Of a stretch of 64,000 nucleotides of DNA, positions 2,600-52,768 are shown one piece after another; the first letter of the stretch is position 1, and each line of letters starts with the position of its first letter. A program made the translations under genes and the position numbers. The stretch comes from a virus. The stretch spans positions 1 to 64,000 of IMG/VR virus record IMGVR_UViG_3300044797_000101; one strand, given 5' to 3'. The notes under the pieces were generated by a model, which saw only the letters and a list, made by a program, of their open reading frames with translations, had not been told where the DNA came from and ran no database searches.

Positions 2600-3367
2600 T
2601 TATCCTTTAAATAATCCAGTAATCCAATTAGGTACTTTCTGGCTTGTTTCTTTATTAAAATTTCGACGTTCATCCCACTCTTCATCTGTGATGTTATCAC
2701 GTTTTTCTTGCTCTTCTTTTTGTTCTAATTGTTTAAGCCAATCCATCCATTCTTCATCTGTTAATTCGTTTTCAGTTGGGATTGATTCTTCAACGTGCTC
2801 GTGTTCTAGATCCTCAAGCCACTGTTTATATTCTTCTGGGTTTAGATCTTGTTTCTCAAATGGATTTTTAATCTGTTTATGGACTTCTTTGGGCACATGG
2901 ACGATCTTTTTCTCTGGCTTCTCAGGAACCTGTTCGATCTTTGGCTCTACTACTGGCATTGGACGAACAGTCTGTTTTGGAGCCTTTTGAACGGGTACTG
3001 GACGACTTGTTCCGATATCTGTATCAGTGTCGCCGTAAGAATCAACCTCAACAGGTGAAAGATTAGGACCGCTAACAATTAAGGTACACGATTGATCGCC
3101 TGGATGCGAACGACAAAACAAGGGAGCATCGTACTCAGTTGTATCTAAAAAATTTTGTAAACTCCAAACCTGTCTATCAAGATCTTGACATTGACTATGG
3201 TGTGAACCGTTTGAATTCCAAGTGACCTGAGTATATCCGTTATTCAATAAATTTGTTAATATTGGACCAGTCATATCCTGGCGATGGTTGCCAGCTGCTT
3301 CTTTATTGAGACGGCAAATCCTCATTGCTTTTGTTGCTAGAATCGATAGCCAATTTTGATCTGTCAT
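2600..3367 (-). CDS. Putative MuF/SPP1 gp7-like head morphogenesis protein
   Basis: W-x7-SQC-x2-LD...SHPGDQSC resembles the MuF C..L.G...HPNCRC core; lies between portal and protease. Confidence 0.5.
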   Translation of the reverse strand: MTDQNWLSILATKAMRICRLNKEAAGNHRQDMTGPILTNLLNNGYTQVTWNSNGSHHSQCQDLDRQVWSLQNFLDTTEYDAPLFCRSHPGDQSCTLIVSGPNLSPVEVDSYGDTDTDIGTSRPVPVQKAPKQTVRPMPVVEPKIEQVPEKPEKKIVHVPKEVHKQIKNPFEKQDLNPEEYKQWLEDLEHEHVEESIPTENELTDEEWMDWLKQLEQKEEQEKRDNITDEEWDERRNFNKETSQKVPNWITGLFKG

Positions 3368-3542
3368 ATCTCATTTCCAAAAATTCTAAATTACCCTTAG
3401 GTATCCATCCAGTGTTACAGTCACAAAATAGATCAGGTGAACCATAATATTCACCCATATTCTGAAAGCATTTCTTTAGACCGTGATGATCGTGTAATTC
3501 CCAGCAGTGATCACATGTACGACATTCATTTTCGTTTGACAT
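3303..3542 (-). CDS. Small Cys/His Zn-finger protein with GNLEFLE tag
   Basis: Probable start MSNENECRTCDH at 3542; CDC..W.PKGNLEFLE. Confidence 0.7.
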   Translation of the reverse strand: MSNENECRTCDHCWELHDHHGLKKCFQNMGEYYGSPDLFCDCNTGWIPKGNLEFLEMRYDRSKLAIDSSNKSNEDLPSQ

Positions 3543-3723
3543 ACTTGTGCTCAAGAAATTCAAGGTTATCCGACGGTAAAAACTCTGTGCATCTGCAACT
3601 TCCATTAACAACATATTGACACAAACAATTTTTATATTTAAAATCTGTATGCGATATATAAGAATGCTGACAGGTCCTGCATTTGTCAAAACTTCGTGGG
3701 TTCCTAATCTTTCGAATAGGCAT
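3526..3723 (-). CDS. Small Cys/His Zn-finger protein with DNLEFLE tag
   Basis: CRTCQH...H...CRCTEFLPSDNLEFLE. Confidence 0.75.
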   Translation of the reverse strand: MPIRKIRNPRSFDKCRTCQHSYISHTDFKYKNCLCQYVVNGSCRCTEFLPSDNLEFLEHKYVKRK

Positions 3724-4013
3724 TACTTTGTCTCGTTTACACCATGCTTTTCTAGGATTGCTTTAGCAAATTTAATTTTATCGTAGCAATCATCCTTGAT
3801 TGTACGTTGGAGCTGCGTCAAATTTCGTTCAGAGATATCAGAGATTCTGATCAAATCTAAAACGCGACCCATATATTTAACCATTACAGCTTCAAACATA
3901 ACGGGAACATTCAGCTCGCCATCTTCTGAAATGTACGTTAGTTCTTTCTTTTCGCCTCTTTCATTACCCTCATGTTTCATAAATTCCTCTCTTTTCATAA
4001 CTTTTAGGATCAA
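3723..4013 (-). CDS. Hypothetical protein
   Basis: ORF abutting its neighbour, downstream of the conserved promoter-like repeat. Confidence 0.6.
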   Translation of the reverse strand: MILKVMKREEFMKHEGNERGEKKELTYISEDGELNVPVMFEAVMVKYMGRVLDLIRISDISERNLTQLQRTIKDDCYDKIKFAKAILEKHGVNETK

Positions 4014-4020
4014 AACTCTT

Positions 4021-4066
4021 TTAGAACGTAGTGCTCCTATTAATATAGGAAAATATTATACTTTTT
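4021..4066 (-). promoter_or_regulatory. Conserved ~45 bp element, copy A (putative late promoter plus leader)
   Basis: Minus strand AAAAGTATAATATTTTccTATATTAATAGGAGcaCTACGTTCTAA; near-identical copies at 17213-17262 and 33123-33172. Confidence 0.7.
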
Positions 4067-4070
4067 AAAC

Positions 4071-4307
4071 TTATTTAGTGACGTCAAAACCAGAAGACTG
4101 AAGCCTATCAATTAATACATTTAGATCATCGGAACCATAATTATCCACACCGATGCTTTTTAGAGCAGAATGAAGCTGATCTACAGTGAGCTTCTTTGAT
4201 GGAACTTGCTTCAAGATCATCTGTGCTAAAAAGTTAGGATCTATAGTAAAACTTGCATTCTTAACTACTTGAATCTTGTTTGGTGAACCTTTTTTAGATA
4301 ATGCCAT
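4071..4307 (-). CDS. Hypothetical protein
   Basis: ORF with GAGG RBS. Confidence 0.6.
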   Translation of the reverse strand: MALSKKGSPNKIQVVKNASFTIDPNFLAQMILKQVPSKKLTVDQLHSALKSIGVDNYGSDDLNVLIDRLQSSGFDVTK

Positions 4308-4325
4308 GTTGACCTCTTATTATAA

Positions 4326-4664: not shown

Positions 4665-5369
4665 TTACTTAATATCTTTTAAAAACTCTCTAATTGTTTT
4701 AAGATCTACAGCAATACCAAGACCAGTTGCACCAAACGCTCCAAACATAGATGTAGAACGTGTCAAGATACCAATCAAATGACAATTTGAATCTACAACT
4801 GCTCCACCACTATTACCAGGAAGAACGGCAGCGTCAAGAACTATAAAACGTGCTTTTTCTTCTTTAATAACCCAATTAATCTTACTTACAATACCACGAG
4901 TAAAGATATCTTGAATACCAAGAGGATTTCCAACTACCCAGCAATCTTGACCGCGAACAGCACGATCAGCTAAACGAATTGGTGTACCTTTCAGTGGTGT
5001 ATAAAGCAAGAGTAAATCAGCAGCTGGATCAACCTTCACAACAACAGCTCGTTCTGAATCATTACCGCGCTTGATCCAAATTTCCTTCAATTCTAAACCT
5101 TTTTCATCTGCACTAAAACTAACGCAATGTGCTGCTGATAAAATAATATTATCTTTAATGTAAACTCCGCTGCATGATCCCCAACCAGATTTTTCTTTCT
5201 TTTCACCAGTTTCTTCGTCAATCTTAGTCATATGAAGTTTCATCTTAATTAGAACAGTAGAATCTTCCATTCTATCTGAGATATGTGTTCCACGAACGTT
5301 GGTTGTATTGAATGCACAAGCTTGTAATAACAGTAAAGCAGACGCTAAAGCTGCGATCGATTTTTTCAT
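4665..5369 (-). CDS. Trypsin-like (S1/HtrA-type) serine protease, probable lipoprotein
   Basis: Signal peptide with LQAC lipobox; catalytic triad motifs SAAHC, DLLLL, PGNSGG. Confidence 0.9.
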   Translation of the reverse strand: MKKSIAALASALLLLQACAFNTTNVRGTHISDRMEDSTVLIKMKLHMTKIDEETGEKKEKSGWGSCSGVYIKDNIILSAAHCVSFSADEKGLELKEIWIKRGNDSERAVVVKVDPAADLLLLYTPLKGTPIRLADRAVRGQDCWVVGNPLGIQDIFTRGIVSKINWVIKEEKARFIVLDAAVLPGNSGGAVVDSNCHLIGILTRSTSMFGAFGATGLGIAVDLKTIREFLKDIK

Positions 5370-5380: not shown

Positions 5381-5917
5381 TTAGTTTAAACTAGATGATG
5401 AGTATGCTTTTTCTATTCCACTTTTCTTAGCATGATCTTCAACAGCTAACGGTTGAAGATTTGTGTAGTGACAAGCTTTAAGGAACTGTTCTCTATCTGT
5501 AAGATCAAAATCGGCTAGACGTTTAATATGATCTAATTCCCAGATTTCTCCCCAATTGGCCCAAGACATATTAGAATAGAACTTAGATTCTATATACTTC
5601 TTAAAGTCTGGAATAGAACATCCAAGATCATTTACTGCAGAACCTGATTTTAAATTGTCTCTAACAGCTGTACTAATACGTCGTCTTAGATTTGATCGTA
5701 ATCTATAATTAATATCTGTTTTGCGTTTTAATATAACGTAATCAATGATAATAGATTTATTAATCTTATAATATTCTCTACTATATGTATTACGGACAAT
5801 TTTATTCTCTAAATGATACAAATGTTCATGCTGTTTTTTACAAAGTTTACAATGACTAGCACTATCTCGTCCGGTAACAAATGTATCATGTCCATTTTGA
5901 CAAAATTGCTTTTTCAT
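5381..5917 (-). CDS. HNH-family putative homing endonuclease
   Basis: LGCS...YIESKF...MSWANWG..WELDH...CHYTNLQPL; paralogue of 7652-8083 and 16588-17190. Confidence 0.8.
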   Translation of the reverse strand: MKKQFCQNGHDTFVTGRDSASHCKLCKKQHEHLYHLENKIVRNTYSREYYKINKSIIIDYVILKRKTDINYRLRSNLRRRISTAVRDNLKSGSAVNDLGCSIPDFKKYIESKFYSNMSWANWGEIWELDHIKRLADFDLTDREQFLKACHYTNLQPLAVEDHAKKSGIEKAYSSSSLN

Positions 5918-7651: not shown

Positions 7652-8083
7652 TTAATTTCTCCTAAATATCGTATCTTTGCTTGTTTTATATCTATGATCT
7701 TCAATTGTTAGGGGTTGAAGATTAGTATAATGTACAGCCTTTTTAAATTGTTCTTTATTTGTAAGATCAAATGTATTCAATTCTTTAATATGATCTAATT
7801 GCCAAACTTTTCCCCAATTATTCCATGTCATATTTTCATAAAACTTTGATTCTATGTATTGTTTAAAGAATTCTATTGAACATCCCAAATCTTTAACTGC
7901 TGATCCAATTTTTTGATTATTTTTAGTTGCCATATACAAACGAACACGAAGTTTACGTCTCAATCTATAGTTAACATCATGCTTCATTTTCTCACGTTGA
8001 TATTTTCCATCTTTAATCAATTCTAATTTTCTATTCCTTAAGTACCAAGCTCTATTCTTAGCTTTTATTTTTTCTTTAGTCAT
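7652..8083 (-). CDS. HNH-family putative homing endonuclease
   Basis: GSAVKDLGCS...MTWNNWG..WQLDH...HYTNLQPL. Confidence 0.8.
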   Translation of the reverse strand: MTKEKIKAKNRAWYLRNRKLELIKDGKYQREKMKHDVNYRLRRKLRVRLYMATKNNQKIGSAVKDLGCSIEFFKQYIESKFYENMTWNNWGKVWQLDHIKELNTFDLTNKEQFKKAVHYTNLQPLTIEDHRYKTSKDTIFRRN

Positions 8084-37553: not shown

Positions 37554-37569
37554 TGTATATCTCCTTAGG

Positions 37570-39980: not shown

Positions 39981-39981
39981 G

Positions 39982-41230: not shown

Positions 41231-41481
41231 TAATCAATTACGCAATCGTTATCTTTCAATCTAATGATCTGGGTCTTTTTATCATCATCTCTATAAGCAA
41301 CAAGAGGTTCTTTGCCTTTCAAAACAAACACAATCACATCTCCAGGCACGATCATGTCTATAGTCTTGATCTTGCTGTTGTTTGGATCTACACACAAAAT
41401 CTGATGTGGACGACCACCGTATGTAGACTTTTCACATCCAACTAATCCTAATAACAAACCAAGTAAAAGTATTTTTTTCAT
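41230..41481 (-). CDS. Small lipoprotein
   Basis: MKKILLLGLLLGLVGC lipobox. Confidence 0.7.
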   Translation of the reverse strand: MKKILLLGLLLGLVGCEKSTYGGRPHQILCVDPNNSKIKTIDMIVPGDVIVFVLKGKEPLVAYRDDDKKTQIIRLKDNDCVID

Positions 41482-41867
41482 ATTAATCCTTCATCCTTTA
41501 TATCATCATCTAACTCAATATTATAGCTACCCTGTTCATATGTAGATTCTATTCCAGCAGCTTTAAGAATTCCCATCATTTTCTCTGCACCAAGCGGATT
41601 TGCTGTATGAAACTTAATCACTTGTGGACGTATTGATTCAGGCATAACAGAGAGATAAAAGGCAACTGGTTGGAATGTTTCCTGTCCGATCTGAAGGCGC
41701 CGTTTAACACTGTCCGATAATTCACCTGAAAAGGGAACACAAATATCGTGGTCAATGCTAATCTCTTCTACATAACCCGTAGACAGAAGACGGATAGCTT
41801 CAGTGTTATTACGAGCAAGTGTCCAACCTTCTGGACAACGGCGAAGATCATCAACGTATAGTTTCAT
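41478..41867 (-). CDS. Cyclic-phosphate processing receiver-like domain protein
   Basis: MKLYVDDLR.CPEGW..ARN..EAI.LL..ISIDHD...HTANP.G; start reassigned to 41867. Confidence 0.75.
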   Translation of the reverse strand: MKLYVDDLRRCPEGWTLARNNTEAIRLLSTGYVEEISIDHDICVPFSGELSDSVKRRLQIGQETFQPVAFYLSVMPESIRPQVIKFHTANPLGAEKMMGILKAAGIESTYEQGSYNIELDDDIKDEGLI

Positions 41868-42042
41868 CTGCTTTTTTCTCCAAGTACTCAAGATTAGTGG
41901 CTGGAACAAATTCAACAGCTGTGTAATATTCACCAGGTGTCTCTGTTGGGCACAGCATCATACTGCCAAGATTAAGATGTTCTTTCTCAAATCGTAGACA
42001 GTTAATACAGTGTCTATTTATGTTTTCTGGCATAACCTTCAA
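41851..42042 (-). CDS. Cys/His protein with TNLEYLE tag
   Basis: CINC...H...C...FVPATNLEYLE. Confidence 0.65.
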   Translation of the reverse strand: MKVMPENINRHCINCLRFEKEHLNLGSMMLCPTETPGEYYTAVEFVPATNLEYLEKKADETIR

Positions 42043-42277
42043 GACGTCTATCCTTCAACGTCCAAGCCAAGTGCATAAGCTTCTCAACAAGCCACCAGAT
42101 AAACTGCTCTAAACGATACATTAGCAACCCTCGCCTACTAGACCTTCATTCCTTAATGTATTGATCTCACTTTGTAGTTCTAAATTAAGAGCATGTTCCT
42201 TAAGCTTTAAGTGTTCCTCAGCTGTTAAACGGTGGGACAAGTAAAGCCAATCAATGTATTCCCAAACAGTTTTAGGT

Positions 42278-42682
42278 TCAACGTTTTTTCTTTTTGCCAT
42301 AAAATCCCCTTTTTCTAACACCCTTTAATAAGGCATCAATCTCTTTAAAATACGTTCGTGGTGAAATAGAAGTTAAACTATTATTTGAATACCTGCTCAC
42401 GTAATCTAATTCACCAAATGATACTTCAAGTTTTGTTTCACCTTGAACTTCAAATGTATCTGAAATTACATGCTCACCAGCAGCAGCAACTATACGCTTG
42501 TAGATCCAACCCCTACGACGTCTACCAAAAAAATAACTATTTCGATATTTAAAGCATTTCCCAACTAACGCTTGCGCTTTAGGAACAGATTCGAGGATAC
42601 GAATCTTATCCCTAATTTCTGAAATATGCTTTTCATATGCAATGGAAAGCTCTTTTAGATTCTTGATAACATCATCGCTCAT
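42278..42682 (-). CDS. Hypothetical protein
   Basis: ORF with AAGGAG RBS. Confidence 0.6.
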   Translation of the reverse strand: MSDDVIKNLKELSIAYEKHISEIRDKIRILESVPKAQALVGKCFKYRNSYFFGRRRRGWIYKRIVAAAGEHVISDTFEVQGETKLEVSFGELDYVSRYSNNSLTSISPRTYFKEIDALLKGVRKRGFYGKKKKR

Positions 42683-42884
42683 TCAACTGCTCCTTACGTT
42701 TTGCACACCACTCTAAATACTCTAGATTATCAGAGGGACTGCATTCTTCTTTACATGCTGATTCACTCTGAGTACCTGTTGGTCCAACTATATCATTTGG
42801 AATCCAATGATATCCTTGTACTCTATGCGCACCACATACACGGCAAGGACTTTTAAATTCCCTTGCATCCATCCACCAAATCAT
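42672..42884 (-). CDS. Cys/His protein with DNLEYLE tag
   Basis: CRVCGAH...H...CSPSDNLEYLE. Confidence 0.7.
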   Translation of the reverse strand: MIWWMDAREFKSPCRVCGAHRVQGYHWIPNDIVGPTGTQSESACKEECSPSDNLEYLEWCAKRKEQLNER

Positions 42885-43166
42885 CTTAGCGAGGCAAGCG
42901 TGTATGTTTACGACGAGCTACTTCAATTGCGGCAAGCTGACGACGCTGAAGAGCAACAACCACCAACAACAGCAACGTGCTTACTTGTAGTAGTAATGAT
43001 TCCATTTTAAGCTCCTTTTAGTTTATTTAAAACAACTGATTCAGCTGCCAAGCAACTAAACCAGCACTAACCAATCCCCAAACATAAGAACCCTGGTAAA
43101 AATTAATTATAGCGAATGTAATATTTAAAACTAAACATCCGTAAAACAACACTTGGTTCATCATAA

Positions 43167-43415
43167 TTATCCTTTTTTCTCAACACGAGACCAAGCAAAC
43201 GCCTGCTTAAGAATCTTATTGAAATGAACGCCTTTGCTTTTAGCTAATTTAAAATCGTCATAATCAGCTTGGGTTGCACCCTTCGCGTCATATGTTCCAC
43301 CGTTATTAAATCGAACACGCATCGTACCAGATTGAGCATCAAATCCAGCAGCGGAAATGTTTGAGCTAACAACTGGTTCTAGTTGAATCTCTGTTGGTTT
43401 AATTTCATCAGCCAT
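43167..43415 (-). CDS. KTSC domain protein
   Basis: PVVSSNISAAGFD...VRFNNGGTY...A.SKG.HFN..K. Confidence 0.85.
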   Translation of the reverse strand: MADEIKPTEIQLEPVVSSNISAAGFDAQSGTMRVRFNNGGTYDAKGATQADYDDFKLAKSKGVHFNKILKQAFAWSRVEKKG

Positions 43416-43444
43416 GTTAATCTCCTTAAAAATACGTATTTAAA

Positions 43445-43612
43445 CTATGCTTAGGATTTGAAGTCCTAACCAGCGGATTCGTCCAACCGCATCTCTCCCT
43501 GATTGTGGGAGTGTTCTCGAATCGTTTAAAAGAGCAAGGTTTCGTTTACCCACGACGAAACAGGCTTCAGCTCCCAAGTGGGATAATGGCTCTATTTCCG
43601 CCTTGCGCCTCT
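43445..43612 (-). ncRNA. Candidate structured non-coding RNA or leader
   Basis: GC-richer intergenic tract after CTGTTATAAT with several hairpins (GCAAGG/CCTTGC, TCCCA/TGGGA, TTTCGT/ACGAAA, CTCCC/GGGAG, GCGG/CCGC, TTAGGA/TCCTAA). Confidence 0.5.
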
Positions 43613-43648
43613 CTATTTATTATAACAGATTATCCGTTATAATAACAC

Positions 43649-44302
43649 TTATTTTTCGTCAAAGTACGTGTTGCCTGTTCCCTTCTTGTGATCTCTAGCT
43701 GGGGATACAATACGATCAACGAAACCATACTCCAGAGCCTGTTGAGAGGAGAAGTAGTTGTTACGTTCACCATCAGCAAGAACCTTATCAAATGGTTGAC
43801 CTGTATGATCAGCCAAAATCTGAGCTAATGAATTCTTATGGTAAACCATTTCACGTGCTTCGATCTCAATATCAGTGGCTTGACCAGAGATACCACCGCC
43901 ATGGATCAAGGGTTGGTGCATCATGATACGAGCATGGGGCATCGCTGAACGCATCCCTTTTGTTCCAGCAGCCAACAAAACTAACCCGAATGACATGGCA
44001 TGACCCATAACTAACGTAGCAACTGGAGACTTCAAATGCTGCATGGTATCATAAATCGCTAATCCTGCTAACACGCTTCCACCTGGGCAGTTGATATACA
44101 TCTGAATGGGTTTATTATTGTCCAAGGATTCTAAATATAGAAGCTGGGCAATCAATAAATTGCTACCTTCCGTTGTAATATCTTCACCGCCAACCATTAC
44201 AATACGATCTGATAACAGTTTGGAAAAGATATCATAGGATATTGTACCGTTAGCGGACTTCTCATAGATACTCGGAACGATTGCCATGTTAGGTTTAATC
44301 AT
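43649..44302 (-). CDS. clpP: ATP-dependent Clp protease proteolytic subunit
   Basis: YDIFSKLLSDRI, QLLYLE, YINCPGGS, GHAMS, MMHQP, GQATDIEI, ALEYGFVD. Confidence 0.93.
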   Translation of the reverse strand: MIKPNMAIVPSIYEKSANGTISYDIFSKLLSDRIVMVGGEDITTEGSNLLIAQLLYLESLDNNKPIQMYINCPGGSVLAGLAIYDTMQHLKSPVATLVMGHAMSFGLVLLAAGTKGMRSAMPHARIMMHQPLIHGGGISGQATDIEIEAREMVYHKNSLAQILADHTGQPFDKVLADGERNNYFSSQQALEYGFVDRIVSPARDHKKGTGNTYFDEK

Positions 44303-44311
44303 GATTCTCCT

Positions 44312-44494
44312 TTATTTCACTTGTGCTTCTAGCCATTTTAAATTATCCCTCTTAAACTGCTTACAATGCTTCCTGCATTTTGGTTCCAATAATCCATAAG
44401 CCCAACACTCAGGTCCGTGACGACCTTTTGGATGCTCACACGCAACACACGGCTCATTGTCAAAACTCAGTTGCTTTATAGTCATGATAGGCAT
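44312..44494 (-). CDS. Zn-finger protein with DNLKWLE tag
   Basis: CVACEH...H...CKQFKRDNLKWLE. Confidence 0.7.
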   Translation of the reverse strand: MPIMTIKQLSFDNEPCVACEHPKGRHGPECWAYGLLEPKCRKHCKQFKRDNLKWLEAQVK

Positions 44495-44594
44495 TCGCCG
44501 TACACTTTAAGCAAGAATCCTCATAGTCATGAGGGAGCAATCTTTCATGGTCTTCTCTTCGATGACCGCATTCACACAGCAATTCTTTACTCAT
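44460..44594 (-). CDS. 44 aa CxCGH Zn-finger protein (untagged)
   Basis: Hand translation MSKELLCECGHRREDH...CLKC...HDYKATEF. Confidence 0.6.
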   Translation of the reverse strand: MSKELLCECGHRREDHERLLPHDYEDSCLKCTANAYHDYKATEF

Positions 44595-44800
44595 ATTTTT
44601 GACTCCAAATATTTCAAATTATCAATCGGTGTATATTGTTCACACTTTCCAACCCTACATTTCTCGCAATATCCATAAATAGTAACACGTGTGCCTTTTT
44701 CATTAATATCTTTTTTATCCCATATTGAAATATCTTTGCCACTATACTGATAGCGATAATGTTTACTTTTCGTATGTTTACAAGTACAAATTCTACTCAT
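44591..44800 (-). CDS. Zn-finger protein with DNLKYLE tag
   Basis: CTCKH...H...CEKC....CEQYTPIDNLKYLE. Confidence 0.72.
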   Translation of the reverse strand: MSRICTCKHTKSKHYRYQYSGKDISIWDKKDINEKGTRVTIYGYCEKCRVGKCEQYTPIDNLKYLESKI

Positions 44801-45851
44801 TGTATTTTAACAGGAAGTCAGGATTGATACATTTGAAACTCAATCGACCTCGCAGCTCCTCTTCGTATTCATTGATCAATGGACGAAACACCACGCCTTC
44901 ACGGTGGACGTCTTTATTCAATAGGCTTTTACCTTTAGAATACTCAACAAGCTCATCAACCGTTCCAGGCAACACGTAGGAATCAGAGATGAATGGAACG
45001 TGAGTAAGTCCAAGATATTCAACGATCTGGCTAAGATCAGCATAGTTAAAGTGAAGACCCGTATCAATATCATAGGCATTGAAAATGTGATAACCAAGCT
45101 TATCTAGTTTGTACTTATTTCCTTGAACTCCAGGACCAAGCAACTCACCTTGAAGAGCGATGTTACGACGGAAACTACGCAACTTATTCTCAAGATCTAG
45201 CTCACGAGCAACCTTCCAGAATGAATTGCCCTCTGTTTCCTTAAGGTCTAGGTTACGAGAACACACACCAAATTCATCACCTTTAAAATAGGTTGTCATG
45301 CTTGAACCGTCAACCTTCTCAGTGACATAGAACTTCTTAAGCTGATGCTTAAATAGCAACTCGGGAACAGCTTGAATGCGCATCTCATCTGTCTTTGACA
45401 AGAATGAGGGAAAATTTCCCTTAACCGTTCCAGATAATTGAGCTGGAACATAAGGTTCGTATTTCTCAACTTCAAGCATGGCTGTAACATCATCGCCTTC
45501 ACTATAATCAAACTTTAGACTGCAATCAGAAATGATTGAGGCATCTGGGATAGCAGCATGAACCTTTTGAGGAATTGGAAGAATAGACAAAGGAAGACAA
45601 AGACCTTGAGATACCTGACCACGTAGCTTAATCGTTTTAATCCTAAAACTAGATTTACGAAGGAACTCAACCTCAGGACTTTCCTTAAGAATTGAATCAA
45701 TCTCAAAGTATACAACCAGGTCGCCGATATTGAATTCGCCCTTCTTGGCTACAACTTTCCAGCCAAGAACAGTTAAAACCTCGATAGCATCGGCTCCAGG
45801 AATAGGTTGAATATCCAATACCTTTTGAATAGATGCAAGCTTGCGTTCCAT
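44793..45851 (-). CDS. RNA ligase (Rnl2/DRB0094 family)
   Basis: N-terminal RKLASI..I.PI.GAD.IE; motif I TEKVDGSS, QGEL, EGVV, SFKCIN. Confidence 0.92.
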   Translation of the reverse strand: MERKLASIQKVLDIQPIPGADAIEVLTVLGWKVVAKKGEFNIGDLVVYFEIDSILKESPEVEFLRKSSFRIKTIKLRGQVSQGLCLPLSILPIPQKVHAAIPDASIISDCSLKFDYSEGDDVTAMLEVEKYEPYVPAQLSGTVKGNFPSFLSKTDEMRIQAVPELLFKHQLKKFYVTEKVDGSSMTTYFKGDEFGVCSRNLDLKETEGNSFWKVARELDLENKLRSFRRNIALQGELLGPGVQGNKYKLDKLGYHIFNAYDIDTGLHFNYADLSQIVEYLGLTHVPFISDSYVLPGTVDELVEYSKGKSLLNKDVHREGVVFRPLINEYEEELRGRLSFKCINPDFLLKYNE

Positions 45852-46238
45852 TATTTACCTTTTGAAACGAGTTGATTCTTCTCAGTATCTAAAATATAAA
45901 CAGCTTTTCCCTGAGTCCGTAGCAAATCCATATGAGCAAAAGCTTTCTCAGCAGAAAAATACCTACCATGAACAATCAAACTATGCTTCGCAGTAAATAA
46001 AAGTTTTATTCTTGCCCAAAGGCTATTATCAACACTCACTAATTCAAATCTAAATGTTCTATCACTCATTAAATTGACCAGTCCTTTTCAATCCCTAATA
46101 CCCATTGCAGTGCATACGCTTGAAGATAAAGATCATTGAAACGCTTCTCTTCCTCAGGCGTACGATCAAATCGAGGCAAACTATTGCGTGCTTCAAAAAG
46201 AGCATTGCACTTCTCGCGAACCTCTTCCTCCCAACGCA

Positions 46239-46673
46239 TTAGATCTCTCTCCATTTCACTTTAGCATCATCAAAATAGTATTTAGTTTTAGCTACAGATT
46301 CTTTCCAACGTGCTTCTAATTTCTTTGGAAGCTTAGGAAACACAGCAAGCTTAATACCTGCTTGAATCATATGCACAGCACAGCGATCACACGAAGCAAA
46401 TGGGTATGTATAAAGAGTACATCCTTCAACTGACTGCTTAGAATTCAGAACAGCATTCATCTCACAGTGAACTATCCGTGAATACTTCAATTCACGATTA
46501 GCATAAAGATGAGGTTCATCACTCATGCCTTTAGGAAAACCATTATAACCCACTGCTAAAATAGTACGATCTGGACGCACAATTACAGCGCCAGTTTGAG
46601 TGCTTGGATCTTTTGACCAGCTTGCTACAAGCTTGGCCAATTCCATAAATCGTTTATCCCACTTGTTTACCAT
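46239..46673 (-). CDS. dCMP deaminase
   Basis: WSKDPSTQTGA, GYNGFP, HCEMNA, CDRC. Confidence 0.92.
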   Translation of the reverse strand: MVNKWDKRFMELAKLVASWSKDPSTQTGAVIVRPDRTILAVGYNGFPKGMSDEPHLYANRELKYSRIVHCEMNAVLNSKQSVEGCTLYTYPFASCDRCAVHMIQAGIKLAVFPKLPKKLEARWKESVAKTKYYFDDAKVKWREI

Positions 46674-46679
46674 AGAGTT

Positions 46680-46708
46680 ATTATAACAGATAAAAGGTGT
46701 TTTGTCAA
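46680..46708 (-). promoter_or_regulatory. Sigma70 consensus promoter
   Basis: TTGACA-17 bp-TATAAT with extended TG; ATG lies only 6 nt downstream of the -10. Confidence 0.85.
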
Positions 46709-46715
46709 CCCCCTA

Positions 46716-47462
46716 TTAATCTCCTATATTTACGTGATGATTTATAAATTCCCTATCTTGACTGAAAACAGGTATATTCTTCTCAACATACCAACCATCA
46801 ACACCCTTAATTACGCAAGCACCACGTTTGTTAATTACAGGAAGATCATTCCAATTGATCCCCTTCTCTTTAAACAGCAGTTCTTGCACTTCATCCGTGC
46901 ACAGACCATGTAACTGCTTCGGACTGAATTGAGACTGTCCTACGCTGTTTATGGAGTTTCTAGTGGCATCCTGTTGTCGCCACAGGAAGTAGTTGCACAC
47001 TTCAGCGTGAGGAAGAATAAACGCACGAGAATCAAAGTGAGCCATAGGCTTAAACTTATCTTCTTGACGATACTCGAACATCCGTAAGTTTGCTCTCTCA
47101 GCTTCATAATTAAAAGCTGCAGTGGCAATGCTTGCTGAGATACTAACAAGCTTTTGAAGATTCTTATCATAAGGCGCTTGGGTTGTCAATGTATCATAAT
47201 CTGTAATGAACAAGCTGATCTCATCTGATTGCCAATAAGCAAGCTTCACGCCTTGTATACCTTCACAAAGTGCTTGGGTTGTTTTAAGCATGAGCTCCAT
47301 GAAGTCTGGATCAAATGGACGAATAAACCCACGTGTGTATGTATGGAAAGCCTTACCATCAATCCTAAGAATCAATGGAAGTCTTCCAGACAAATGGAAA
47401 CGATAGGCATTCTCGTAGTTTTTCATACGATCACCAAGGCTATCTTTTTCAGGCTTGCTCAT
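46716..47462 (-). CDS. tRNA(His) guanylyltransferase Thg1-like 3'-5' polymerase
   Basis: RIDGKAFH, QSDEIS, FDSR, YFLWRQQDATRNS, KGINWN. Confidence 0.92.
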   Translation of the reverse strand: MSKPEKDSLGDRMKNYENAYRFHLSGRLPLILRIDGKAFHTYTRGFIRPFDPDFMELMLKTTQALCEGIQGVKLAYWQSDEISLFITDYDTLTTQAPYDKNLQKLVSISASIATAAFNYEAERANLRMFEYRQEDKFKPMAHFDSRAFILPHAEVCNYFLWRQQDATRNSINSVGQSQFSPKQLHGLCTDEVQELLFKEKGINWNDLPVINKRGACVIKGVDGWYVEKNIPVFSQDREFINHHVNIGD

Positions 47463-47661
47463 TTAGAAGCTCCTGTTTCTTTTTCTTCAATTCCATAAAA
47501 GCTAGGTTGTCCCCATCAAAATCATGAAACCTATCATCTGTATAACCAGGTTCATCAATCTGACATCCAGTACAAACTCCAGTACCTGTTGAAATATTAA
47601 CGTAATGTCGCTCGGCTAAATGCCTACAGACCTTACAAGGAAAATCCTTAGCGACTGCCAT
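47449..47661 (-). CDS. Zn-finger protein with DNLAFME tag
   Basis: Start MAVAKDFPCKVCRH; CTGC...HDFDGDNLAFME. Confidence 0.68.
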   Translation of the reverse strand: MAVAKDFPCKVCRHLAERHYVNISTGTGVCTGCQIDEPGYTDDRFHDFDGDNLAFMELKKKKQELLNEQA

Positions 47662-47824
47662 AATATTCCTTATCCATTTGTTCTGCATACAGCTGATCAT
47701 CTAGGATAAACACATTACACGGACAAGCAGCTTTTGGACGGTATATATCCTCACGCTGACAGATAAGCCCGAATTGTCCGTGTTCTTTATCTAAATGACC
47801 ACAGCTACAAATTAATTCTACCAT
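47648..47824 (-). CDS. 58 aa CxCGH Zn-finger protein with degenerate tag (DDQLYAE)
   Basis: Hand translation MVELICSCGHLDKEH...CPCNVFILDDQLYAE. Confidence 0.6.
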   Translation of the reverse strand: MVELICSCGHLDKEHGQFGLICQREDIYRPKAACPCNVFILDDQLYAEQMDKEYYGSR

Positions 47825-48099
47825 GAATCTTTATCCTGTTCACGGATTTTTATCTCGGCTTGCTCAGCCTTAAGTTCAAGATATTCTAAATTGTCCATTG
47901 GTTGATAATCAAGGCATCCGCACTTAGTTGAGCTCACACTGAATTGTCCTTGCATATATGAATCACAAGGAACCATCTCAAGGATCTTTATAAATGATTG
48001 AGTAATGCCGCCTTGTTCAATACGAAGATAGATTGCATGATGACTAACCATATGTCCGCATTTACGACACATCGCATCACTTTTAGGATAGTCTAACAT
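47818..48099 (-). CDS. Zn-finger protein with DNLEYLE tag
   Basis: CRKCGH...H...CGCLDYQPMDNLEYLE. Confidence 0.72.
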   Translation of the reverse strand: MLDYPKSDAMCRKCGHMVSHHAIYLRIEQGGITQSFIKILEMVPCDSYMQGQFSVSSTKCGCLDYQPMDNLEYLELKAEQAEIKIREQDKDSW

Positions 48100-48365
48100 T
48101 CAGGTCTCTCATTCCATTCTTTTAGAATGGGAAATGTTTCAAATATATCTGCTCCAGCACGAACAGCCTTTACACGATCTAACTCTTCAAGGTATTTTAG
48201 ATTATCAACTGGTACATTCTTTAAAACAAACTTAGCCCTAGCTTCAAGCCTATTTAGAAATTCTTCTTTATCATCTGTAATAATGTATTTTTGTTTAGGA
48301 GGTTTAGGTCCTTTAAGCATTTCAGCAATCTTTTCAATATTCCAGCCCCAATCAGTTGTATCCAT
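48093..48365 (-). CDS. Hypothetical protein with DNLKYLE tag
   Basis: No finger; NVPVDNLKYLE. Confidence 0.65.
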   Translation of the reverse strand: MDTTDWGWNIEKIAEMLKGPKPPKQKYIITDDKEEFLNRLEARAKFVLKNVPVDNLKYLEELDRVKAVRAGADIFETFPILKEWNERPEC

Positions 48366-48856
48366 TATTTAGACTTCTTTTCTTTCTCTTTACTCTTAGT
48401 TTCAAGGATACGAAGGTTATCTAGTTTCTTTTTCATATCGTCCCAGACTTCCCTAAAATTCTGTTCCCATTTAAACTCAAACGCTTTAGTATTAGCCCAA
48501 GCTTCGAAAGCATCCATATTTTTAATTATGGGAAAGATGCTTTGCCCAATAGCAAGTGTAATTGCGTTACCACGACGTCGTCCATTGAGACCTGCAAGCT
48601 TTAATTCATTGACACCGTAAACTCCATCGCTCTTAATACCAAAGTTATAATCGCACCAGAGTGTTGTGCCACCACCTAAGTCAAAGACGGCGTAGTCATT
48701 ACCATCATCAAATATGATCTTAAACTTAAACGGTGCATCTTGAAGATCAATCAGCTTAGCATACTCTTTACTATGGAATCTACGATGGTGCCACAAGAAT
48801 CCACCGAGGATTGTTGGAAATGTTACGAAAACTCCGTACAAAAAATGATGGCTCAT
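48365..48856 (-). CDS. Membrane-anchored hypothetical protein with DNLRILE tag
   Basis: N-terminal TM helix; KLDNLRILE. Confidence 0.6.
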   Translation of the reverse strand: MSHHFLYGVFVTFPTILGGFLWHHRRFHSKEYAKLIDLQDAPFKFKIIFDDGNDYAVFDLGGGTTLWCDYNFGIKSDGVYGVNELKLAGLNGRRRGNAITLAIGQSIFPIIKNMDAFEAWANTKAFEFKWEQNFREVWDDMKKKLDNLRILETKSKEKEKKSK

Positions 48857-49512
48857 TGGTTATCGCCTCTCTCTAATACTTCATTAACAAGCTTATCGGG
48901 GTAAATGATATCACGAACATCTTCACCCTTAACCTCGATAAAGTTGAAATTCTCTAATACCTTTGATGCAGCTGTCATACCAAATGTCTTCTCAAACGCT
49001 TGTGGATCAAGGTTGCTTGTGATAATCGTGATATGCTCATCCTCACGACGATGTGACATCAAGAGCGTAAGCTCACGTTTATCATTATGAGGGTTGCTAG
49101 AACAGAATGCAGGAGAAACATCATCAAGCAATAGAATTGGCACAGTCATTGCAAGCCTACGATCTGCAATAGCTTCATCTGTAAACTGGTTGCGACTGAT
49201 TAGGTATTCACCGAACTTAATCTGAGCGATAGGAAGAATGACAACCTTACCCTCTGAATCAAGACGCGGTTGATGCAGCTGCTGTAAGACATAATTAGCG
49301 ATACGAGACTTCCCATTTCCATTCACTGGGGAATAGATATACAGGTTATCTCCATCTTCTACAACGTCTGGATCTGCAAGGTATTTCGCTACCTTGGCTT
49401 GAATATCTTGAACGTTTGAGGCACCAAATAAATCTTTAATGTCCCAATCTCGATGGAGTTTAGGAATTGCAGTTCTTACAACGTGGCTCATTGTCTCGCT
49501 CCTCTTTCTCAA
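48853..49512 (-). CDS. DnaC/IstB-like AAA+ ATPase (helicase loader-like)
   Basis: Walker A NGNGKS, Walker B LLLDD, IITSNL. Confidence 0.75.
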   Translation of the reverse strand: MRKRSETMSHVVRTAIPKLHRDWDIKDLFGASNVQDIQAKVAKYLADPDVVEDGDNLYIYSPVNGNGKSRIANYVLQQLHQPRLDSEGKVVILPIAQIKFGEYLISRNQFTDEAIADRRLAMTVPILLLDDVSPAFCSSNPHNDKRELTLLMSHRREDEHITIITSNLDPQAFEKTFGMTAASKVLENFNFIEVKGEDVRDIIYPDKLVNEVLERGDNQ

Positions 49513-49807
49513 TCGATCTAATTTCTAATAATTCTAAATTCGTAAAGATACCACCATTTTTTCGTTTGTAATCTTGATATTGTGTTATCGCTGCAGACAA
49601 TGGTAAGATCTCTAAATGTGCGTCAGAATAATCGTAACAAGAACACCCAGACTCATACACTACGACATAACGTCCGTCGCTTAATTGAAAGACGTGCATC
49701 TCATCGACGCCATCTGAGTTAGGATTTGAAAAGCAACCAAGCTCCAACGTTGCTTTAGCACCGTCAACGTTACCAGCCCACTGATCATGCCAACAATCAA
49801 GCGACAT
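49460..49807 (-). CDS. Hypothetical protein with TNLELLE tag
   Basis: GCSCY motif; IFTNLELLE. Confidence 0.6.
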   Translation of the reverse strand: MSLDCWHDQWAGNVDGAKATLELGCFSNPNSDGVDEMHVFQLSDGRYVVVYESGCSCYDYSDAHLEILPLSAAITQYQDYKRKNGGIFTNLELLEIRSIEKEERDNEPRCKNCNS

Positions 49808-49988
49808 TCTTTTTCTCCAATGACTTCTTTTCTAAATACTCTAAATTACCAACATATGGATGCTTAAAAAAACTATTTTTTCTCTTATTCACACCAAACC
49901 TATAACACTCAGAACACCACACTGTCGTAGGATCATGATGCGCTACTGAGTGCTCTTCTCGTTTATGACCACAGGTAAAACAAATCAT
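49797..49988 (-). CDS. Zn-finger protein with GNLEYLE tag
   Basis: CFTCGHKREEH...CSEC...HPYVGNLEYLE. Confidence 0.7.
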   Translation of the reverse strand: MICFTCGHKREEHSVAHHDPTTVWCSECYRFGVNKRKNSFFKHPYVGNLEYLEKKSLEKKNVA

Positions 49989-50828: not shown

Positions 50829-51397
50829 ATTAGTCTTCCAACACTGTATTTAATTAAATGACAGTTCATGCAAACGACGTTGCATTTCTGAAGCTCAGTA
50901 AGTAAGGTTGATGTTTCGCCAAGGATCATCTTAGAGAGCGTTTTATGTCTCGAAGGTGTTTGCCTATAGGAAAACGTCATAGCCACTCTAGGAAATGATC
51001 CCTTACATTCTAGGCACGCTTGAGAGATAGCTTCAGTGACAATCTTCGTATTAATCTCACGAAGAGCATCCTCAACCTGTTTCTGTTCAATGCGACGCTT
51101 CGTGCGTTCCTTACGTGAAACAACCATCTCTAAATATTTTAGGCGATCACCCTTCTTGAGCATGTACATCTCAGTTGTCGATGTACCTTCAGGAATTTTA
51201 GATGAGACCTCATATTTCCCACGACCAGCAGGACGTAAGAATCCACCGATCAACATCATGCTACGATGACCATCAACGGTTCCAGGGGAAATACCTTTGA
51301 CCCTAGCAAATTGTTGAAGATCAGACCGTTTGATAACGTGTCCGATCTCGTGCTTATTTATAAAATCAACGACTTGTTTCCAATAGCTATCGCTCAT
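50825..51397 (-). CDS. wHTH-like N-terminus plus degenerate HNH-like C-terminus; internal DRLKYLE
   Basis: RPAGRGKY; CLEC...ELQKCNVVCMNCH. Confidence 0.6.
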   Translation of the reverse strand: MSDSYWKQVVDFINKHEIGHVIKRSDLQQFARVKGISPGTVDGHRSMMLIGGFLRPAGRGKYEVSSKIPEGTSTTEMYMLKKGDRLKYLEMVVSRKERTKRRIEQKQVEDALREINTKIVTEAISQACLECKGSFPRVAMTFSYRQTPSRHKTLSKMILGETSTLLTELQKCNVVCMNCHLIKYSVGRLI

Positions 51398-51593
51398 CGG
51401 CTTTCATCTCCAAGTACTTAAGATTATCCACTGGTGCATAACCTGGACACTTGCGACACGAGCATTCTCCAAAGCCTATCTTCTGATTGTCCATGCCAAA
51501 ATCCCTAACGTTAATATGGAACTTAGCATTATGCGGACAATAGCGACAAGGCTCTTCCGCTAAATACTTAGGATAATCATACCAGCGTTTCAT
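51387..51593 (-). CDS. Zn-finger protein with DNLKYLE tag
   Basis: CRYCPH...H...CRKCPGYAPVDNLKYLE. Confidence 0.72.
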   Translation of the reverse strand: MKRWYDYPKYLAEEPCRYCPHNAKFHINVRDFGMDNQKIGFGECSCRKCPGYAPVDNLKYLEMKADER

Positions 51594-51778
51594 TGATTTG
51601 TAAACCCCCCGTCTGAAAGTTTTTCAATAAATAAAAGATTATCAGGTCTAAAGACCTGACATGGACAAATGCTACCATTCTTCTCAACAAAGCCAGCACA
51701 CTGAAACAACCAATCACCATTAAAATTATGTATCTTTTGAGCATGCCCACACTTGCATGGGTACTCTCTACTTAACAT
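51590..51778 (-). CDS. Zn-finger protein with DNLLFIE tag
   Basis: CKCGH...H...CPCQVFRPDNLLFIE. Confidence 0.72.
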   Translation of the reverse strand: MLSREYPCKCGHAQKIHNFNGDWLFQCAGFVEKNGSICPCQVFRPDNLLFIEKLSDGGFTNQ

Positions 51779-51977
51779 TGTTTAACAACTCCAACGTCTT
51801 TAGGTTGTCTGGTTCAAAATTTGGGCACATGCAAATCTTTTCATTTGTAGTGGGATTTGGATAATCCTTATACTCAAAACAGATACGACCATTGATCCCA
51901 TATCCCTTGATAGCATCCTCAACGGTTGAGTGCATCTTGTTTCGATGACCACACTTACATATGAAGTTATCGTTCAC
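51768..51977 (-). CDS. Zn-finger protein with DNLKTLE tag
   Basis: Start reassigned to GTG 51977 (GGAG 7 nt upstream); CKCGH...CMCPNFEPDNLKTLE. Confidence 0.72.
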   Translation of the reverse strand: MNDNFICKCGHRNKMHSTVEDAIKGYGINGRICFEYKDYPNPTTNEKICMCPNFEPDNLKTLELLNNVK

Positions 51978-52125
51978 TCTGCATCTCCAGGTATCTAAGA
52001 TTGTCTTGCACATAATCATTACACCTGCAAATTGGTTTACCACAGAACTTAAATACGTTAGTTTCCTCCATAGCATGACATCCTCTCGGATGACCACAGC
52101 TACAGGGATAATCGTTATCTATCAT
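51967..52125 (-). CDS. 52 aa Zn-finger protein with DNLRYLE tag (not in ORF track)
   Basis: Hand translation MIDNDYPCSCGHPRGCH...CRCNDYVQDNLRYLEMQSER. Confidence 0.72.
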   Translation of the reverse strand: MIDNDYPCSCGHPRGCHAMEETNVFKFCGKPICRCNDYVQDNLRYLEMQSER

Positions 52126-52312
52126 TATTAAGCCTATCCTCTAAGTATCTTAGGTTGTCACCTTTAAATTTAGTACAAATGCTTGCAGCCACCATAAATC
52201 CATTCATGCTTGCGTAAAATCCTTTGTCAGCCCAACAGATTGCGCAATGAAGACCAATGATATGATCTTCGTAATTATGATTGCAGTTTTTGCACGGATA
52301 CAGTAGGTCCAA
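52115..52312 (-). CDS. Zn-finger protein with DNLRYLE tag
   Basis: CKNCNH...H...CAIC...CTKFKGDNLRYLE. Confidence 0.72.
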   Translation of the reverse strand: MDLLYPCKNCNHNYEDHIIGLHCAICWADKGFYASMNGFMVAASICTKFKGDNLRYLEDRLNNDR

Positions 52313-52457
52313 TTGCCTTCTCCAGTGTCAACAGATTGTCTGGTTTAAACTCATCACAAAGGCACATGAAGCATCCAGCATATTGCCACGCTATGCTCTC
52401 TTTAAAGTTATGATTGAACTCCTCGTGCGAGCACTTACAAATGCGTACGATCTGCAC
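52275..52457 (-). CDS. Zn-finger protein with DNLLTLE tag
   Basis: CKCSH...H...CFMCLCDEFKPDNLLTLE. Confidence 0.72.
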   Translation of the reverse strand: MQIVRICKCSHEEFNHNFKESIAWQYAGCFMCLCDEFKPDNLLTLEKAIGPTVSVQKLQS

Positions 52458-52596
52458 TTGAATACTCCAATGATTTGAGGTTGTTCATAAAGAACTTAGT
52501 GCAAGTACAAAAGCCACATTCTAATACTAGATCTTGTCTATAATAATGATGCATCCAATCAGGATGGTTGCAATCACACACTCTTGTTATTAACAC
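52435..52596 (-). CDS. 53 aa Zn-finger protein with NNLKSLE tag (not in ORF track)
   Basis: Hand translation MLITRVCDCNHPDWMH...CGFCTCTKFFMNNLKSLE. Confidence 0.68.
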   Translation of the reverse strand: MLITRVCDCNHPDWMHHYYRQDLVLECGFCTCTKFFMNNLKSLEYSSADRTHL

Positions 52597-52768
52597 TTAA
52601 TGCCTCAAGGTATTTAAGATTGTCTAATTTAAAATTATGAGAGGAAGCTTTAAATCGTAACGAGAATCGAGGATACTTACCAGCATTCCAACAGGCAAGA
52701 CAACCACTTGCTCCGTGGCGATCGTGTTCATGACCGCAAATACAGATATTAGATTCGGAGTGACTCAA
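52574..52768 (-). CDS. Zn-finger protein with DNLKYLE tag
   Basis: CICGHEHDRH...CLAC...HNFKLDNLKYLE. Confidence 0.72.
   Translation of the reverse strand: MSHSESNICICGHEHDRHGASGCLACWNAGKYPRFSLRFKASSHNFKLDNLKYLEALSVNNKSV

Follow-up and report, generated by a model that had tools for sequence, protein, structure and literature searches.

Why would dozens of small proteins encoded by one virus end in nearly the same short peptide? The question is raised by the first 64 kb, hereafter the window, of a virus record of 119,809 bp (IMGVR_UViG_3300044797_000101), whose source is an uncultured large phage. The element in question is a C-terminal tag of the type D-N-L-x-Y-L-E, its positions numbered D1, N2, L3, x4, Y5, L6, and E7, which forms the core of a module of ~15–17 residues, [FY]-x-[PK]-x-D-N-L-x-Y-L-E-x-[LK]-x-[ED]. 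An earlier note on this DNA had read the tag as a portable peptide that plugs many variable heads, mostly small zinc fingers, into one partner, with ClpP among the candidates. Here, we report that the tag is real and larger in extent than first noted: at least 71 of ~250 mechanically called open reading frames (ORFs) in the record (~28%) carry it, 30 of them in the window. The interpretation is partly supported, i.e., selection on the peptide and its modularity hold, docking to a hub stays a proposal, and the link to ClpP is without support.

ORFs are named here by their low coordinates, and gene starts were called mechanically (longest ORF). Each of the 30 low coordinates that had been given for the window marks the stop codon of an ORF on the minus strand, and the motif lies 1–30 residues from its end; the strict pattern DNL[KE][YFW]LE occurs 13 times in the minus-strand frames of the window and 0 times in the plus-strand frames. 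For the whole record, a 15-residue hidden Markov model (HMM) of the tag was trained on 89 tags from two syntenic IMG/VR relatives only, G001 (192,085 bp, with direct terminal repeats) and G002 (180,416 bp), because circularity was to be avoided, and was run at a threshold of 8 bits against 1,837 six-frame ORFs of at least 30 amino acids. The comparison with shuffled ORFs, proposed earlier as a check, came out clearly: 67 ORFs reached 8 bits, all on the minus (coding) strand, against none on the plus strand (maximum 5.7 bits) and none in five residue-shuffles of the minus-strand ORFs. Among the 30 window ORFs, 27 score at least 8 bits and 51590 scores 7.4 bits; the remaining two, 48365 (4.3 bits) and 49460 (4.9 bits), are at noise level when taken alone, and their G001 orthologs read DNLRFLE and TNLEYLE. 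Two degenerate copies had also been proposed. The one at 47648 (DDQLYAE) is indeed a finger with a decayed tag (finger HMM E 1.5e-5), and the other, DRLKYLE inside 50825, scores 4.9 bits, which is chance level.

The statement that no copy lies beyond 53 kb is correct for 53–64 kb and fails beyond the window, where ~41 more tagged ORFs of the same record are located, in a dense array at 64.9–76 kb and then as the single genes 86254, 101503, and 104031 (105852 is a doubtful candidate at 5.4 bits). A slightly widened tag pattern gave 71 tagged ORFs in the record, 58 in G001, and 41 in G002. The two relatives gave 53 and 43 matches to the family profile, and three large phages that are unrelated gave none. 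Please note that three large phages found via the RNA ligase have only 1–2 genes in common with this phage within 21-kb loci around the ligase and are, because of so few shared genes, unusable as tag-less relatives.

Does selection act on the peptide, or on the DNA or RNA that encodes it? The codons of the tag vary synonymously: D is GAT 33 times and GAC 18 times, N, Y, and E are likewise each encoded in both possible ways, and all six leucine codons occur at L3 as well as at L6 (L3: TTA 20, CTT 19, CTA 16, CTG 6, CTC 3, TTG 2). Amino acid substitutions within the tag are conservative. In 25 ortholog pairs between the record and G001 (BLAST E ≤1e-10), the seven tag residues are 81% identical vs. 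43% for the rest of the protein, and the tag is present in 24 of the 25 G001 partners. Judged from these sequence comparisons, selection acts on the tag peptide, as had been claimed earlier in preference to a DNA site.

There is nevertheless a nucleotide-level signal on top of the coding one, which the earlier note had overlooked. In 79 of 170 tagged genes of the three phages, the next ORF (at least 45 amino acids) starts 4–13 nt past the tag Glu codon, the commonest spacing being 7 nt in each phage (18, 16, and 18 cases); in the tandem arrays the next gene usually begins 7 or 10 nt after this codon, and the L-E codons read TTGGAG, TTAGAG, or CTGGAG. The Glu is encoded by GAG in 44/79 genes with a start nearby vs. 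27/91 elsewhere (Fisher p 0.001), and GGAG is formed in 21/79 vs. 7/91 (p 0.0015). With this spacing, the L-E codons often double as the Shine-Dalgarno site of the next, overlapping gene, which makes the tag a clean example of a coding motif co-opted as a ribosome-binding site. In the tag arrays of all three phages (e.g., 51387–52768), consecutive tagged genes overlap by ~10–37 nt, and the 8–10-residue tail is read in two frames.

One could then argue that the tag exists for an RNA- or DNA-level reason, i.e., translational coupling, a Shine-Dalgarno element, or a recombination site in tandem arrays, and the 7-nt mode, the GAG and GGAG enrichment, and the codon bias at L6 and E7 speak for it. 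We regard such a cause as highly improbable and, as the main explanation, largely excluded: conservation of the seven residues is no lower in the 91/170 genes without a nearby start, third codon positions vary freely with conservative substitutions at the amino acid level, and D, N, L3, and Y5 play no part in a Shine-Dalgarno site. The Shine-Dalgarno use is thus secondary, because the tag is equally intact in those 91 genes. A Shine-Dalgarno or translational-coupling element as the sole cause was rejected on the same counts, together with the variation at synonymous sites.

If the peptide is what is selected, is it simply the terminal helix of a known zinc finger? Most carriers do have a finger directly before the tag, as had been observed: a finger-only HMM (E ≤1e-3) matches 20 of the 30 tagged ORFs in the window, and inspection by eye adds three CxxC variants (3303, 41851, and 42672) and one finger that has decayed (33787). 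In the record, 40 of the 71 tagged ORFs are matched, and many of those outside the 40 are CxxC variants. The consensus from a 36-member alignment is C-x-C-G-H-x4-H, an insert, C-x-C-x2-[FY]-x1-2, D-N-L-x-Y-L-E, and a short polar tail; the insert is variable (~10–50 residues) and has one further conserved Cys, and a subgroup has CxxC with a longer spacing to the His.

No known family accounts for this finger in the libraries searched. Ten window members had no Pfam family below E 0.05, and when 73 members were searched singly at E up to 10, no Pfam family was matched by more than two of them (best E 0.0015, to unrelated families), so the finger is not recognizable as a known Pfam zinc-finger fold of which the tag would be the end; zf-HC3 (PF16827) is not among 25 listed of the 28 Pfam families matched. 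The SWIM finger (PF04434, CxCxnCxH) was considered and rejected, as only 2/73 members touch the model, at E 0.71. It is similar in that a CxC knuckle stands at the start, the ligands are Cys and His, and it occurs in bacterial and phage proteins; it differs in the order and number of ligands, the phage finger having ~7 conserved Cys/His. PHROGs gave two matches only for ten members (E 0.027 and 0.08), to unnamed families of 250–881 positions, and Pfam on four further non-finger heads and four long metagenome matches gave no usable family save a weak match to a DSP phosphatase at the N-terminus of the metagenome protein P0134. On the structural side, the 73-member profile found one PDB chain at E 1.3, which is no useful match, and Foldseek with a low-confidence finger model (predicted local distance difference test, pLDDT, 63) found 0 matches.

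Searches for relatives elsewhere were negative in phage records and positive in metagenomes. By tblastn against 50,697 phage records, one window member had no match at E up to 1, and the family protein P0059 had only matches at E ≥0.7, to actinophage proteins and in the finger part only; megablast of 9 kb against phage records gave no match, in a search from which near-identical records may be absent. Scanning 185,579 species genomes for [FY]KQDNL[KR][YF]L gave 10 pattern matches, 0 of them confirmed, and a scan of viral contigs for KQDNLKYLE gave one locus. The ESM Atlas returned unnamed viral clusters only for the finger. In the literature text the strings DNLKYLE, DNLEYLE, DNLRYLE, and NLKYLE were not found, and keyword searches gave no relevant title. 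A word-indexed search returned 105 family proteins, all unnamed or "hypothetical", and an exhaustive metagenome profile search gave 1,928 cluster representatives (50% identity) at E ≤1e-3, 79 of them at ≤1e-10, the retrieved sequences having the same finger followed by FKQDNLKYLE-type tags. One candidate member, P0113 (809 amino acids, with 11 "stretches"), was discarded as an unrelated repeat protein, i.e., a false positive; longer fused forms of the family were not found at E ≤1e-3, which is weak evidence. A family of 1,928 representatives that is nameless in the libraries searched amounts to a substantial patch of viral dark matter, one that can readily be recognized from its sequence. We rate the finger family and the tag as outside any described family or system, and the mechanism below as one that we infer.

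Within a genome, the heads of paralogs are far apart (best identity median 31–35%, maximum 52%), and many paralogs are syntenic across the three phages. As far as such comparisons tell, the paralogs are old and individually useful genes, because every one of them has been retained as an ortholog by related phages. A uniform nucleic acid-binding role is not indicated, because the carriers have no common charge bias (median isoelectric point 6.1–8.3).

Is the tag, then, tied to the finger? The tag is also carried by ORFs without a finger: 34307, 35279, 39579, 48093, 48365, and 49460 in the window, and 67268, 68827, 70623, and 71480 beyond it. The finger HMM has no match in the six of the window (49460 at E 4.6 is not significant), and the six heads, trimmed of the tag, do not match each other significantly (best E 0.02); the marginal head pairs are 39579–67268 (E 0.005) and 35279–49460 (E 0.02), both in a ten-sequence database. 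At E ≤1e-3 the six heads find only their own orthologs in G001 and G002, 8/8 of which are tagged. The head of 39579 could be followed furthest. A database search gave 32 proteins among 38 candidates, and in an alignment of 17 of the 31 non-self matches together with two phage orthologs, 19 of 20 rows keep ILDNLEYLE, the lone exception being a shortened protein whose sequence departs from the others within the tag. Tag-less fingers exist as well, in 6, 7, and 4 ORFs of the record, G001, and G002, respectively.

Finger and tag thus appear in these genomes as separable, independent modules. A side observation concerns P0134 (509 amino acids), in which four fingers in tandem, none with a DNL tag, stand behind a phosphatase-like N-terminus (weak match to PTP-SAK, E 1.3e-5); it hints that the finger alone may be used in other, apparently different lineages. 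Of the claim that the tag is portable, the part that stands is its presence on six unrelated heads and its retention in orthologs, and the word is not to be read as ongoing shuffling. As no tag-free homolog of any carrier head was found, the fusions are taken to be old and stable.

What does the tag look like in three dimensions? AlphaFold2, given the 39579 alignment, predicts with a pLDDT of 85.5 a long-hairpin β-barrel up to residue 115, followed by a helix (residues 117–130) that is made of tag and tail. For the finger member 51590, the model is poor (pLDDT 63), with the tag in its only helix (residues 47–57). The tag is therefore predicted, by these models, to be an α-helix appended to a head domain. 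On a helical wheel (100° per residue), one face is made up of L3, L6, E7, and position 10, another of Y5 with position 9, and a third of the variable position 4 with positions 8 and 11. Positions 4 and 8 covary, Glu/Asp4 occurring with an aromatic residue at position 8 in 40/66 tags and Lys/Arg4 in 4/63; the paralogs are related, so these events are not independent. A co-fold of 39579, the finger protein 51387, and two zinc ions scored 0.01, which is neither support nor counter-evidence.

We propose that the tag is a common docking helix read by one shared partner, an explanation to which we give somewhat less than an even chance. In the proposed mechanism the helix would be the docking element, its reader would be one common partner encoded by phage or host, and dozens of different small heads, produced in the course of infection to act as binders, inhibitors, or adaptors, would thereby gather at one site. 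One argument is that L3, Y5, L6, and E7 cover more than one face of the helix and yet are nearly invariant on heads of unrelated fold. An external reader is suggested because an intramolecular contact should vary with the head, and the invariant residues are the same on unrelated heads. In two carriers a hydrophobic N-terminal segment is followed by basic residues (by eye), which would place the tag in the cytoplasm.

A second argument comes from position 10, just past the core. Tyr is found there in 36 of 41 tags of G002, 13 of 58 of G001, and 8 of 71 of the record (Fisher p 3e-16, G002 vs. record). The G002 paralog heads are no younger (median best identity 33%; 33–35% in G002 and the record), and for the orthologs of 21509 and of 68468, Tyr stands at position 10 in the G002 copy and not in that of the record. 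In the sequences compared, the extension of the tag thus varies by genome, not by ortholog group, and a common reader that differs between phages or hosts would explain this genome-wide shift.

Several points weigh against a shared external reader. The position-10 shift could stem from gene conversion confined to the tag, no candidate partner stood out, and no tag-free homolog of a carrier head was found that would point directly to a transfer of the tag. In most carriers, moreover, the tag stands only 4–6 residues after the second zinc knuckle, and the two-module proteins P0108, P0115, and P0182 keep one tag per finger, both of which would also fit a helix within the finger's own fold; how the helix packs is unreadable because the finger model has a pLDDT of 63.

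These last points lead to the alternative of an intrinsic structural helix, either a cap that stabilizes very small domains or a short homo- or heterodimerization helix. It would be kept as the sole regular secondary structure, and the non-finger carriers would be descendants whose head was replaced upstream of the helix. The short distance to the last CxC knuckle with a conserved aromatic residue before the tag, the pairing of one tag with one finger in two-module proteins, the helical spacing of the hydrophobic positions 3, 6, and 9/10, and the sequence C-F-P-V ahead of the tag in the non-finger carrier 34307, which is like the second knuckle of the finger, are all consistent with it. We consider it unlikely, though a serious competitor, since the same six residues are found on unrelated heads (β-barrel, Cys-free, and membrane-anchored) where the intramolecular interface should differ, and since fingers exist and persist without the tag. 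As to dimerization, helix and tail together are mostly 10–20 residues, short for a free-standing coiled coil. The predicted tag helices have 11 and 14 residues with hydrophobic residues at positions 3, 6, and 9/10 only; coiled-coil or leucine-zipper helices usually have at least three heptads with hydrophobic a/d positions.

The docking helix can be taken one step further. One helix on 40–70 heads per genome might dock to a single socket, so that the whole set would be a combinatorial library of adaptors or inhibitors; we offer this form of the idea tentatively. The heads, mostly zinc fingers with hypervariable loops, would be, e.g., anti-defence or host-takeover factors sharing one anchoring point, and the socket would coevolve with all plugs at once, as the genome-wide Tyr at position 10 suggests. 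A finger and at least six unrelated heads are combined here with one constant C-terminal module, an arrangement that by analogy resembles constant-module adaptors with variable heads. Viral families of this type are the poxvirus ankyrin/PRANC proteins, whose constant docking module is F-box-like, and HIV Vif has an HCCH zinc site followed by the SLQ[YF]LA BC-box helix. The likeness would lie in many paralogs or diverse heads with a short conserved C-terminal helix that brings many specificities to one hub, and for Vif also in the zinc site directly upstream of an x-L-x-Y-L-x helix. The differences are that their modules dock to eukaryotic cullin ligases and have no sequence homology to the phage tag, which has a bacterial host setting and a far higher copy number per genome size (~28% of ORFs).

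Bacterial and phage C-terminal docking peptides are also known, i.e., the XB peptide of SspB for ClpX, the clamp-binding tails of T4, and the C-terminal tip of SSB. In these, too, different proteins are attached to one partner, a ring-shaped or hub protein, by a short C-terminal peptide. They are located at or near the extreme C-terminus on flexible linkers in a handful of proteins; the phage tag, in contrast, is a predicted helix abutting a folded head, with a variable tail after it, in 40–70 proteins per genome. If one helix does send a quarter of the phage proteins to one partner, bacteriophages would have their first described linear-motif system on a proteome scale. The 15-residue tag offers a ready experimental hook with which to catch that partner, and small binders could be drawn from the hypervariable fingers as from a natural library.

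Could the partner be a Clp-type protease? The phage encodes two ClpP-family proteins, 43649–44302 (minus strand; Pfam CLP_protease E 1.7e-66, cut-off 20.2 bits), which is a strong ClpP match, and 33189–33815 (minus strand; E 9.1e-26, above the same cut-off), the weaker of the two paralogues, plus a classic AAA ATPase. These matches establish membership of the ClpP family and no link to the tag. Both ClpP paralogues lie outside the head module, whose own protease is 4665–5369. The tag might then act as a degron that lets early proteins be destroyed at a set time, or as an adaptor-docking peptide by which tagged proteins deliver targets, the two phage ClpP paralogues working with a host unfoldase. 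Tethering of an adaptor by its C-terminal peptide has a precedent in the XB peptide of SspB. We find this reading quite improbable. Counted over 156 tags, the motif is followed by 3–30 residues (median about 9) that vary in sequence, so that it does not sit at the extreme C-terminus as ssrA-type degrons do, and an ssrA/ClpX-type C-terminal degron was rejected on this ground; ClpP itself does not select substrates; no IGF/IGL-type ClpP-docking loop was seen in the AAA protein (by eye only); and adjacency to the ClpP genes means little because a quarter of the genes are tagged. The earlier suggestion of ClpP as the partner had no basis beyond the presence of the two ClpP-family genes, and it finds no support here.

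The β-barrel head of 39579 brings in another alternative, a virion-targeting signal by which small proteins would enter the capsid, or attach to neck or tail, and be delivered with the DNA, by analogy with the capsid-targeting sequence of T4 and the cargo-loading peptides of encapsulins. Foldseek with the 39579 head gave a best E of 6e-3 with a template modelling (TM) score of 0.42 (tail-tube/Hcp-like, weak), VIA-align gave Z up to 6.8, with PilZ and split barrels scoring the same, and the Atlas gave TM 0.46–0.60 to Dit, tube, head-tail joining, and head-closure clusters. The resemblance to a tail-tube/Hcp/head-closure fold is thus weak though consistent, a lead only; both are long-hairpin β-barrels, the scores are below the level proving homology, and the 39579 gene lies among nonstructural genes. 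Gene position points the same way in part, as the tagged ORFs 3303 and 3526 adjoin the protease and portal genes, those at 21509–22278 lie between giant proteins, with positions kept in the relatives, and a finger is embedded in the giant protein 25001–28054. Most tagged genes, on the other hand, stand in small-gene arrays among nonstructural functions (peptide deformylase, RNase H, RNA ligase, ClpP), and we hold virion targeting to be improbable.

The individual carriers of the window, all on the minus strand, are given here with their tag-HMM scores in bits, those named finger ORFs having the finger directly before the tag. Near the protease, 3303–3689 has GNLEFLE behind a CxxC-variant finger (12.3 bits; finger HMM E 0.0055; tagged G001 ortholog; start uncertain, being that of the longest ORF), and 3526–3723 is a finger ORF with DNLEFLE (20.7 bits; G001 and G002 orthologs tagged). 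Three finger ORFs follow at 21509–21748 (DNLKYLE, 20.6 bits; both orthologs tagged), 21696–21917 (DNLATLE, 13.9 bits, a variant kept in the metagenome orthologs P0002, P0003, P0008, P0012, and P0015), and 22278–22454 (ENLAFLE, 11.0 bits). The next group begins with 33787–33963, a decayed finger (CRCG...) with DNLEYLE (19.4 bits; no finger-HMM match), and continues with two non-finger carriers, 34307–34579 with an unrelated head (DNLKYLE, 20.9 bits; G001 ortholog tagged) and 35279–35554 with a Cys-free head (DNLTYLE, 15.4 bits; both orthologs tagged). Finger ORFs are then found at 38894–39289 (DNLKYLE behind a long insert, 21.0 bits), 39204–39404 (DNLEFIE, 15.1 bits), and 39379–39582 (DNLKWLE, 14.5 bits), followed by 39579–39980, the non-finger ORF with a predicted β-barrel head and C-terminal tag helix (DNLEYME; AlphaFold2 model; 19/20 aligned homologs tagged).

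Two CxxC-variant fingers carry TNLEYLE (41851–42042, 17.9 bits) and DNLEYLE (42672–42884, 22.4 bits). The finger ORF 44312–44494 (DNLKWLE, 16.4 bits) belongs to the sole ortholog pair whose G001 partner gave no tag by pattern; others are 44591–44800 (DNLKYLE, 19.7 bits), 47449–47700 (DNLAFME, 9.9 bits), and 47818–48099 (DNLEYLE, 23.9 bits). Three ORFs without a finger come next: 48093–48365 with 30 residues after the tag (DNLKYLE, 18.7 bits; G001 ortholog tagged), 48365–48856 with a hydrophobic N-terminal segment (DNLRILE, 4.3 bits; DNLRFLE in the G001 ortholog), and 49460–49807 (TNLELLE, 4.9 bits; TNLEYLE in the G001 ortholog). The last group is made of finger ORFs: 49797–49988 (GNLEYLE, 13.6 bits), 51387–51593 (DNLKYLE, 20.7 bits), 51590–51778 (DNLLFIE, 7.4 bits; the member modeled at pLDDT 63 with the tag in helix 47–57), 51768–52097 (DNLKTLE, 12.7 bits; start uncertain), 51967–52125 (DNLRYLE, 18.8 bits), 52115–52312 (DNLRYLE, 17.4 bits), 52275–52457 (DNLLTLE, 11.4 bits), 52435–52596 (NNLKSLE, 13.0 bits), and 52574–52768 (DNLKYLE, 22.1 bits).

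Fingers that stand without an intact tag, likewise on the minus strand, are 47648–47824 (the decayed DDQLYAE copy; finger HMM E 1.5e-5, not among the tag-HMM matches listed at 3 bits or more), 44460–44594 (E 6.9e-6), 36631–36792 (E 2.2e-5), and 60944–61189 (E 9.6e-4). The finger embedded in the 1,017-amino acid protein 25001–28054 (E 7.8e-5) has no tag either; this protein is in the structural region and is studded with CxxC pairs, and its finger copy is complete (CxCGHx4H...CxC).

What kind of phage carries all this? The record has 39% G+C with nearly all ORFs on the minus strand, and the window contains genes for a portal, the protease at 4665–5369, and a T4-type large terminase; other proteins encoded by the phage are a family-A DNA polymerase, a DnaB-like helicase, NAMPT, peptide deformylase, RNase H, and RNA ligase. 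Cultured relatives are remote: the terminase shares 30% identity with its counterpart in Bacillus phage G, and the polymerase ~27% with the polymerases of Bacillus phages. At E ≤1e-5, 177 ORFs of the record have a match in G001 and 112 in G002, and roughly 100 proteins are common to all three phages. By synteny, ~60 kb (91–152 kb of G001) appears to be missing from the 119.8-kb record, whose first ORF runs off the contig end; the record is probably incomplete, because synteny suggests that this part of G001 is lacking. No tRNA genes were found in a search, and σ70-like promoters between 33.5 and 53.4 kb are at chance level (61 found vs. 63.5 expected); one perfect σ70 consensus (TTGACA, 17 nt, TG, TATAAT) is located at 46708–46680 on the minus strand, in the gap before gene 46239–46673.

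A few other genes deserve mention. The ORFs 5381–5917, 7652–8083, and 16588–17190 (minus strand) are three paralogues that flank the portal, terminase, and giant genes and whose best matches in the relatives sit at different places; 5381–5917 and 16588–17190 match endonuclease VII/HNH-like PHROG families, and 7652–8083 is without a PHROG match and is tied to the other two only via shared relatives in other phages. By these matches and positions, the three look like homing endonucleases. The protein 17284–21258 (minus strand; 1,324 amino acids) is multidomain, with a 2H phosphoesterase (2_5_RNA_ligase2) domain at residues 819–923. Beyond the window, a MoxR-like AAA_5 ATPase adjoins a DUF2201 metallopeptidase/VWA protein at 89875–92353 of the record (minus strand), a pair that is conserved at 60–78% identity in both relatives. 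The family-A DNA polymerase (record 98943–101531, minus strand) has an N-terminal domain of the uracil-DNA-glycosylase superfamily fused to its exonuclease and polymerase domains, and in each of the three phages the start of the polymerase gene is overlapped by a tagged finger gene (101503 in the record).

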